Positions 61,741-61,836 of a DNA stretch of 64,000 nt are shown in pieces (the first letter of the stretch is position 1; every line of letters starts with the position of its first letter). The notes under the pieces are model-generated. The model was given only the letters and a program-made list of their open reading frames with translations. It was not told the origin of the DNA and did no database searches. Origin of the DNA: Escherichia coli (lineage in GTDB: Bacteria > Pseudomonadota > Gammaproteobacteria > Enterobacterales > Enterobacteriaceae); the NCBI RefSeq assembly GCF_044647545.1, contig NZ_CP172818.1; one strand, written 5' to 3'. Both the position numbers and the translations under genes were made by a program.

Positions 61741-61756
61741 TGCAAAGCGGATGCCA
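61741..61756 (-). promoter_or_regulatory. Sigma-54 (-24/-12) promoter of the rutA-G operon
   Basis: Minus-strand reading TGGCAT-ccgct-TTGCA matches TGGCAC-N5-TTGCA; predicted TSS near 61730, 17 nt upstream of the rutA ATG. Confidence 0.7.
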
Positions 61757-61820
61757 GTTTTTAAAAAGCGAATGTTATTAATGTGTTAATGTTTGGTTGT
61801 CTGAAATATCTGGAAAAAAG

Positions 61821-61836
61821 TGGACTAAACGGTCAA
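61821..61836. promoter_or_regulatory. Candidate RutR operator (imperfect)
   Basis: tggactaaacggtcaa compared with recalled RutR box TTGACCAnnTGGTCAA: right half-site GGTCAA intact, left half degenerate. Confidence 0.3.

Follow-up and report, generated by a model that had tools for sequence, protein, structure and literature searches.

The closest described system is the rutA promoter with its RutR box in Escherichia coli K-12 (Shimada 2008, Bonocora 2015), and the region analysed here is the same locus, that is, a member and not an analogue of it. On the identical or near-identical K-12 sequence it is established that the sigma-54 holoenzyme binds the -24/-12 element, that NtrC occupies the region in nitrogen starvation, that a RutR dimer binds a 16-bp box at nanomolar affinity and is released by uracil, and that this box is needed for negative autoregulation of rutR. 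The window (the whole 64-kb stretch of DNA that was analysed) has the K-12 letters throughout the sigma-54 17-mer, the RutR 16-mer and the two NtrC-like palindromes. Spacer SNPs and the exchange T8I in RutR distinguish the two, with no functional difference in the named elements.

Promoters of the glnAp2 type, with tandem NtrC sites at about -110 and -140, resemble the rut region in that both have a -24/-12 element and two 17-bp palindromes placed two helical turns apart, and control by nitrogen limitation is common to both. In contrast to glnAp2, rutA has a TetR-family repressor site between enhancer and promoter, and a positionally conserved IHF-like core is present in the rut region; classic glnAp2 needs no IHF. 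The nifH, glnHp2 and Pu promoters are IHF-assisted sigma-54 promoters, and rut likewise holds an IHF-like core between enhancer and promoter, near -52, although the E. coli rut core is putative and degenerate (TTAAT for TTGAT).

At carAB P1 (box centre at -184.5) the same RutR protein binds a site of the same 16-bp box family with comparable affinity and uracil-sensitivity. There its effect is positive, RutR countering repression by PepA at a sigma-70 promoter (anti-repression), and the carA box matches the consensus at 13/14 positions as against 11/14 for the rut box. At rut, RutR is negative on the sigma-70 promoter of rutR and, by inference, on the sigma-54 promoter of rutA.

Locus identity and layout of the control region

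A 601-bp query around the site returned 100% identity to several complete E. coli genomes, and the region was present in 5421 of 5426 genomes. Across this control stretch about 137 of the 5421 genomes were at least 99% identical to the window allele, which was 96.7% identical to K-12 over 361 bp, the differences falling mostly in the spacer. The gene order, with putA after rutR, follows the RefSeq annotation. The features are as follows, listed by descending coordinate of the minus-strand reading from rutR towards rutA.

61943..62581, plus strand: rutR coding sequence (TetR family; 212 aa), oriented away from rutA (annotation and translation)
61864..61880, no strand assigned: the distal of two NtrC-type palindromes; reads TGCACTCTCATCGCGCA in the rutA sense, centred near -142, centre-to-centre distance to its partner 21 bp
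61843..61859, no strand assigned: the proximal of the two palindromes; reads TGCATGTTTTATGTGCA in the rutA sense, centred near -121, with 6 bp between it and the RutR box
61821..61836, plus strand: RutR box, TGGACTAAACGGTCAA, centre 61828.5, about -98.5 from the predicted rutA start and 114.5 bp upstream of the rutR ATG
61788..61776, minus strand: IHF-like core, TAACACATTAATA (plus strand TATTAATGTGTTA), a YAA-N4-TTGATW sequence carrying G>A; centred at -52 and flanked by the RutR box and the -24 element
61757..61741, minus strand: sigma-54 (-24/-12) promoter for rutABCDEFG; sequence CTGGCATCCGCTTTGCA, GG doublet 61755-61754, GC doublet 61743-61742
61730, minus strand: predicted rutA transcription start, from the motif centre 61749 and the rule of Bonocora 2015; the listed distance of 18 matches 61730 to 61712
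61656..61729, minus strand: rutA leader, about 75 nt, including the in-frame ATG 61712 of the old 382-aa annotation
60564..61655, minus strand: rutA coding sequence, 363 aa, starting MKIGV (RefSeq annotation of the identical sequence NZ_CP033850.1)

The sigma-54 promoter, the RutR operator and the two NtrC-type sites between rutR and rutA form an already characterised region and represent ordinary biology. A sequence-only reading of the window had taken the interval as native rut-locus DNA useful as a positive control, which the identity to complete E. coli genomes bore out. The value of the finding lies there: from the letters alone a real sigma-54 promoter and a partly degenerate operator were recovered. 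Motif counts alone were not above chance, and the features rest on position and context, on published binding data for identical sequences, and on cross-species conservation.

Beyond rutG, K-12 carries a weak antisense sigma-54 ChIP-seq site, OA02, CCGGCATGAACAATGCG (Bonocora 2015). A window counterpart would be expected near 56150, but none turned up with 2-3 mismatches allowed, so the region beyond rutG differs in this strain.

The sigma-54 promoter, its NtrC-type sites and the rutA leader

The sigma-54 element reads TGGCAT-CCGCT-TTGCA at 61756..61741 on the minus strand, in the context AAAACTGGCATCCGCTTTGCAAACAAGCC, and its GG and GC doublets are exactly 10 bp apart, in accordance with TGGCAC-N5-TTGCW. 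The motif TGGCAT-N5-TTGCA had been named in the sequence-only reading with string, strand and coordinates exact. Its distance of 17 nt to the rutA ATG was in error: TTGCA ends at 61741, and 28 nt separate it from the ATG at 61712 and 85 nt from the RefSeq ATG at 61655. The value of 17 nt fits the interval between the predicted transcription start (61730) and ATG 61712; rutA had been taken from its older, long start.

A sigma-54 ChIP-seq peak (OS10) with the motif CTGGCATCCGCTTTGCA on the minus strand has been assigned to b1012/rutA (Bonocora 2015), and this is the same 17-mer as in the window. The same work places predicted starts 19 bp downstream of the motif centre and lists the rutA start 18 nt from the gene start; this puts it at 61730 in the window, the position that the sequence-only reading had anticipated. 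It also cites EcoCyc, in 2015, as flagging the rutA promoter 'P' (predicted), and no experimentally mapped rutA start was found in the accessible literature, so the position given here is a predicted one. Additionally, RpoN holoenzyme alone binds the rutA/rutR spacer in a gSELEX peak (Shimada 2021), inside which the window element is located.

With at most one mismatch, TGCAC-N7-GTGCA had just two matches in the 64 kb, both of them here and with one mismatch each. These adjoining palindromes, overlooked in the earlier reading, have the form of tandem 17-bp NtrC sites (TGCACC-N5-GGTGCA) on the same helical face about 100-150 bp upstream. In nitrogen-starved cells NtrC gave a 94-fold ChIP-seq peak at ycdMLKJIHG (= rutA-G), a locus-level interval which corresponds to window 61699..61779, and RNAP occupancy and rut expression rise under the same condition (Brown 2014). 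Upstream enhancer-protein sites for the sigma-54 promoter are thus indicated by the predicted NtrC pair together with this operon-level peak and the upregulation. The NtrC/sigma-54 control of rut that had been proposed from the sequence is supported by the same peak and by the identity of the published sigma-54 motif.

TGGCAY-N5-TTGCW matched without mismatch only once in the window, at the rutA site, against 0.32 matches expected, and at least one match occurred in 26% of shuffles. A perfect match somewhere in 64 kb would not be surprising by chance, and most sigma-54 sites seen in ChIP-seq are bound by inactive holoenzyme (Bonocora 2015). The match could on these grounds, and with a rutA start that is predicted and not mapped, be a transcriptionally silent binding site, with rutA transcribed from an unrecognised sigma-70 promoter. 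We regard this as very improbable, since the element is oriented and spaced as expected for a rutA promoter, the NtrC peak is located here, RNAP and expression go up in nitrogen starvation, and the site is conserved upstream of rutA in 104/111 species with NtrC-like sites at a fixed offset; moreover, no sigma-70-like promoter was detected in 61600..62000.

Two rutA start codons have been annotated, the RefSeq ATG at 61655 (363 aa) and the older ATG at 61712 (382 aa), which adds an extension of 19 codons. Across species the distance from the sigma-54 element to ATG(MKxGVF) ranged from 32 to 140 nt, and the 19-codon extension was not conserved. By eye, GAGAGG is located 6 nt before ATG 61655, and an SD-like AGGA just 1 nt before ATG 61712. 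On the basis of the unconserved leader length, the RefSeq start and the SD spacing, ATG 61712 was rejected as the main RutA start, although protein of the long form has been produced and crystallised and both forms are in the PDB (363-aa 6SGG, long 5WAN). RutA thus likely starts at 61655, in the shorter 363-aa form.

A structured or riboswitch-like rutA leader was also rejected, as no Rfam match was obtained at E up to 1 and the leader did not fold better than shuffled sequences (z = +0.80). A terminator-like hairpin at 61693..61709 on the plus strand, antisense to the leader, was taken as chance (1 match vs 0.4 expected). In the cross-species loci L015, L029, L046, L047, L055, L078, L100, L102 and L114, a leader element, CGCACTCAAGCCGCGCA, was observed 62-81 nt upstream of the rutA ATG. 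It is common to long-leader species (Rahnella, Rouxiella, Hafnia psychrotolerans, Pantoea stewartii/ananatis, Serratia sp. M24T3) and absent from E. coli.

The RutR operator

The box upstream of the promoter comprises a near-consensus half-site, TTGACCg, and a degenerate one, TaGTCcA, with 11/14 matches overall to the consensus TTGACCAnnTGGTCAA, and it keeps the consensus bases A4 and T13. Identical letters, TGGACTAAACGGTCAA, are listed in Table 1 of Shimada 2008 as an intergenic (rutA) site at -114.5 with a score of 11/14 and with ChIP-chip and EMSA support; -114.5 is the exact distance from the window box centre at 61828.5 to the rutR ATG at 61943. According to the same study, consensus positions 4 and 13 are kept in all high-affinity RutR sites. 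A 50-mer containing the box was used for EMSA and ITC (ITC K_D 44 nM), and the rutA-rutR fragment was bound in EMSA with a K_D of about 8.6 nM, as tightly as carAB, with a uracil I0.5 of about 9 nM. The rutR sigma-70 start is upstream of the box on the plus strand, which places the box downstream of that start, and a four-bp operator-constitutive mutant of the box, in a rutR-lacZ fusion, abolished the uracil-sensitive autoregulation of rutR.

The window 16-mer is the established RutR operator and not a mere candidate. In the sequence-only reading it was described as resembling the RutR consensus with one half-site intact and the other degenerate, a description which holds and was too cautious. 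The box had been placed about 65 bp upstream of the sigma-54 element (64 nt lie between the two), and the published RutR binding data on the identical 16-mer agree with the location at which that reading expected the footprint.

Four RutR-like matches with at most three mismatches were found in the window against 2.9 expected, and the operator itself has three mismatches to the consensus, a level at which chance resemblance, with the true operator elsewhere in the intergenic region, might be considered. Such a reading is refuted already by the binding and mutational data and is vanishingly improbable: the 16-mer is the exact published site and forms the central part of the oligonucleotide to which RutR binds at 44 nM, it matches at positions 4 and 13, it is invariant in the E. 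coli alleles, and its position is conserved across about 100 species.

RutR codon 8 (61964..61966) encodes Ile here and Thr in K-12 (MTQGAVKITGK vs MTQGAVKTTGK). The residue is located between K7 and K11, lysines of the N-terminal tail, the acetylation of which has been reported to weaken DNA binding.

Within fabA (ORF 12645..13361, minus strand; FabA start about 13163), TTGACCACACGGTCCA at 13039..13054 on the plus strand matched the RutR box at 12/14 positions, more than the 11/14 of the rutA operator. The sequence is identical to an intragenic RutR site published from ChIP-chip (+117.5; Shimada 2008) and belongs to the puzzling in-gene RutR targets without known regulatory effect.

Conserved spacing and a proposed mechanism

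In an alignment of seven E. coli alleles, K-12 and O157 among them, neither the RutR box nor the proximal NtrC site varied, the distal NtrC site and the -24 element had one SNP each in one allele, and the sigma-54 element was unchanged in 6/7. Within the 46-bp spacer at 61769..61814 about 16 columns were variable, compared with nearly invariant flanking protein sites, and the spacer length was kept save for a 1-nt deletion in strain N61. In E. coli ECCWS199 (L006; alignment A1, column 208) the -24 element reads TGGTAT, not TGGCAT, and this allele may be a promoter-down variant.

For the cross-species comparison a degenerate DNA pattern on the RutA N-terminus, blind to upstream motifs, yielded 120 loci, 111 of them with 300 nt or more of upstream sequence. 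Allowing one mismatch, a sigma-54 site was located upstream of rutA in 104 of these 111 species (83 perfect), in comparison with 0.9% of shuffles. RutR-like boxes with at most three mismatches were present in 87/104 loci (1.1% of shuffles), positions A4 and T13 were kept in 101/104, and a box-like sequence was found at a quantised distance in 100/104. Box and divergent rutR homologue occurred together in 81 loci, the box only in 19, rutR only in one, and neither in 10; the divergent homologue thus accompanied 81/100 box-bearing loci and was missing from 10/11 box-less ones.

Measured from the box centre to where the -12 element ends, the spacing took only three ranges, stepped by a helical turn, 74-79 bp (20 loci), 86-89 bp (35 loci) and 96-99 bp (45 loci). 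NtrC-like sites recurred in the species compared at 22.5-23.5 and 43.5-44.5 bp on the far side of the RutR box, counted from its centre. Within a family the spacing class may change (Yersinia 78 vs Serratia/Rahnella 96-97; Rosenbergiella 77 vs Pantoea 96-97), and Pseudomonas species had a box spacing of 77 or 96; the switches within families indicate that the whole-turn steps do not reflect inheritance alone. No report of the phasing, of the fixed RutR-NtrC spacing or of an IHF-like core at rutAp was found in the accessible literature.

Two loci labelled Enterobacter, L062 (Enterobacter cancerogenus M004) and L112 (Enterobacter ludwigii EnVs2), had a Pantoea-type rut region with 96-bp spacing, and their sigma-54 and RutR-box sequences were identical to those of Pantoea L052 and L089 and of Erwinia sp. 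S63 (L071). This suggests that the two assemblies may be mislabelled or contaminated.

The IHF-like core, also overlooked in the earlier reading, has in the window one mismatch to WATCAANNNNTTR, at a strongly conserved C/G base. Of 100 species spacers, 73 contained such a core with at most one mismatch, compared with 15% of shuffles, and 15 contained a perfect one, compared with 1.1%. In every spacing class its centre was nearly always at -52, or at -55 if the pseudo-palindrome is read on the opposite strand. The core may be a bend site, and it may instead or also be the -35 region of rutR; no IHF binding data at rutA were found in the accessible literature.

The core overlaps a candidate rutR -35, TTAATG at 61778..61783. 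As the sigma-70 consensus scan of 61600..62000 returned no rutR promoter, a candidate, TTAATG-18-TGAAAT, could only be proposed by eye. At 61803 the window allele alone of the seven aligned has G on the plus strand, the others, including K-12, having A. The change from TAAAAT to TGAAAT on the plus strand would affect the key A of the candidate rutR -10, at an 18-nt spacer from TTAATG.

On the basis of this anatomy and its conservation, NtrC~P would assemble on the palindromes at about -121 and -142 and reach the closed complex by looping, probably aided by DNA bending at the IHF-like core (-52). RutR, bound at -98.5 in the path of the loop and separated from the proximal NtrC site by 6 bp, would act as an anti-activator, hindering assembly of the NtrC oligomer and/or the geometry of the loop, and not competing with polymerase. 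A RutR-NtrC distance fixed within 1 bp would speak more for RutR disturbing NtrC assembly than for it only making the loop stiffer. Full rutA expression would require both nitrogen limitation (NtrC~P) and uracil (RutR release), with transcription predicted to start near 61730 and RutA translation from 61655. With the looping and anti-activation included, we strongly expect the interval to form the central part of the control region from which rutR and rutABCDEFG diverge.

The role of RutR at rutA itself is less uniformly described. Reviews and primary papers state that RutR represses rutA-G, and one paper words its role at rutA as 'activation'. In one study neither a rutR deletion nor K52 acetylation of RutR changed rutA mRNA in exponential phase, which leaves direct repression of rutA less firmly documented in the accessible literature than the autoregulation. 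The box might therefore serve rutR autoregulation only, as a roadblock placed shortly after the sigma-70 start of rutR, with rutA controlled essentially by NtrC alone; the operator-constitutive mutations were assayed just on the rutR-lacZ fusion, and a box at -98.5 is far from the polymerase site. By the reading of the authors of the mRNA study, however, NtrC was inactive in exponential phase and derepression could not show. A roadblock, moreover, would need neither a box spacing fixed within 1 bp from the NtrC-like sites nor helical phasing to the -12 element, and the literature naming RutR as repressor of rutA-G stands against it as well. We consider a role in autoregulation only to be unlikely.

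A more far-reaching proposal, which we put forward tentatively and hold to be possible but doubtful, is that the two NtrC sites and the RutR box form a rigid enhancer-plus-operator cassette (21/23 bp spacings), moved across Proteobacteria only by whole helical turns (about 78, 88 and 98 bp) relative to the IHF-like bend and the sigma-54 promoter. RutR would then be a TetR-family anti-activator, and not a polymerase competitor, that fills the slot beside the proximal NtrC dimer in which further NtrC subunits have to pack for the active oligomer, and IHF would be an unlisted co-factor of rutAp. The comparative result is modest, in that the quantised spacing, the fixed RutR-NtrC distance and the IHF-like core lead to a testable hypothesis. 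That hypothesis addresses a point open in the RutR literature, namely how a TetR-type repressor about 100 bp upstream may silence a sigma-54 promoter.
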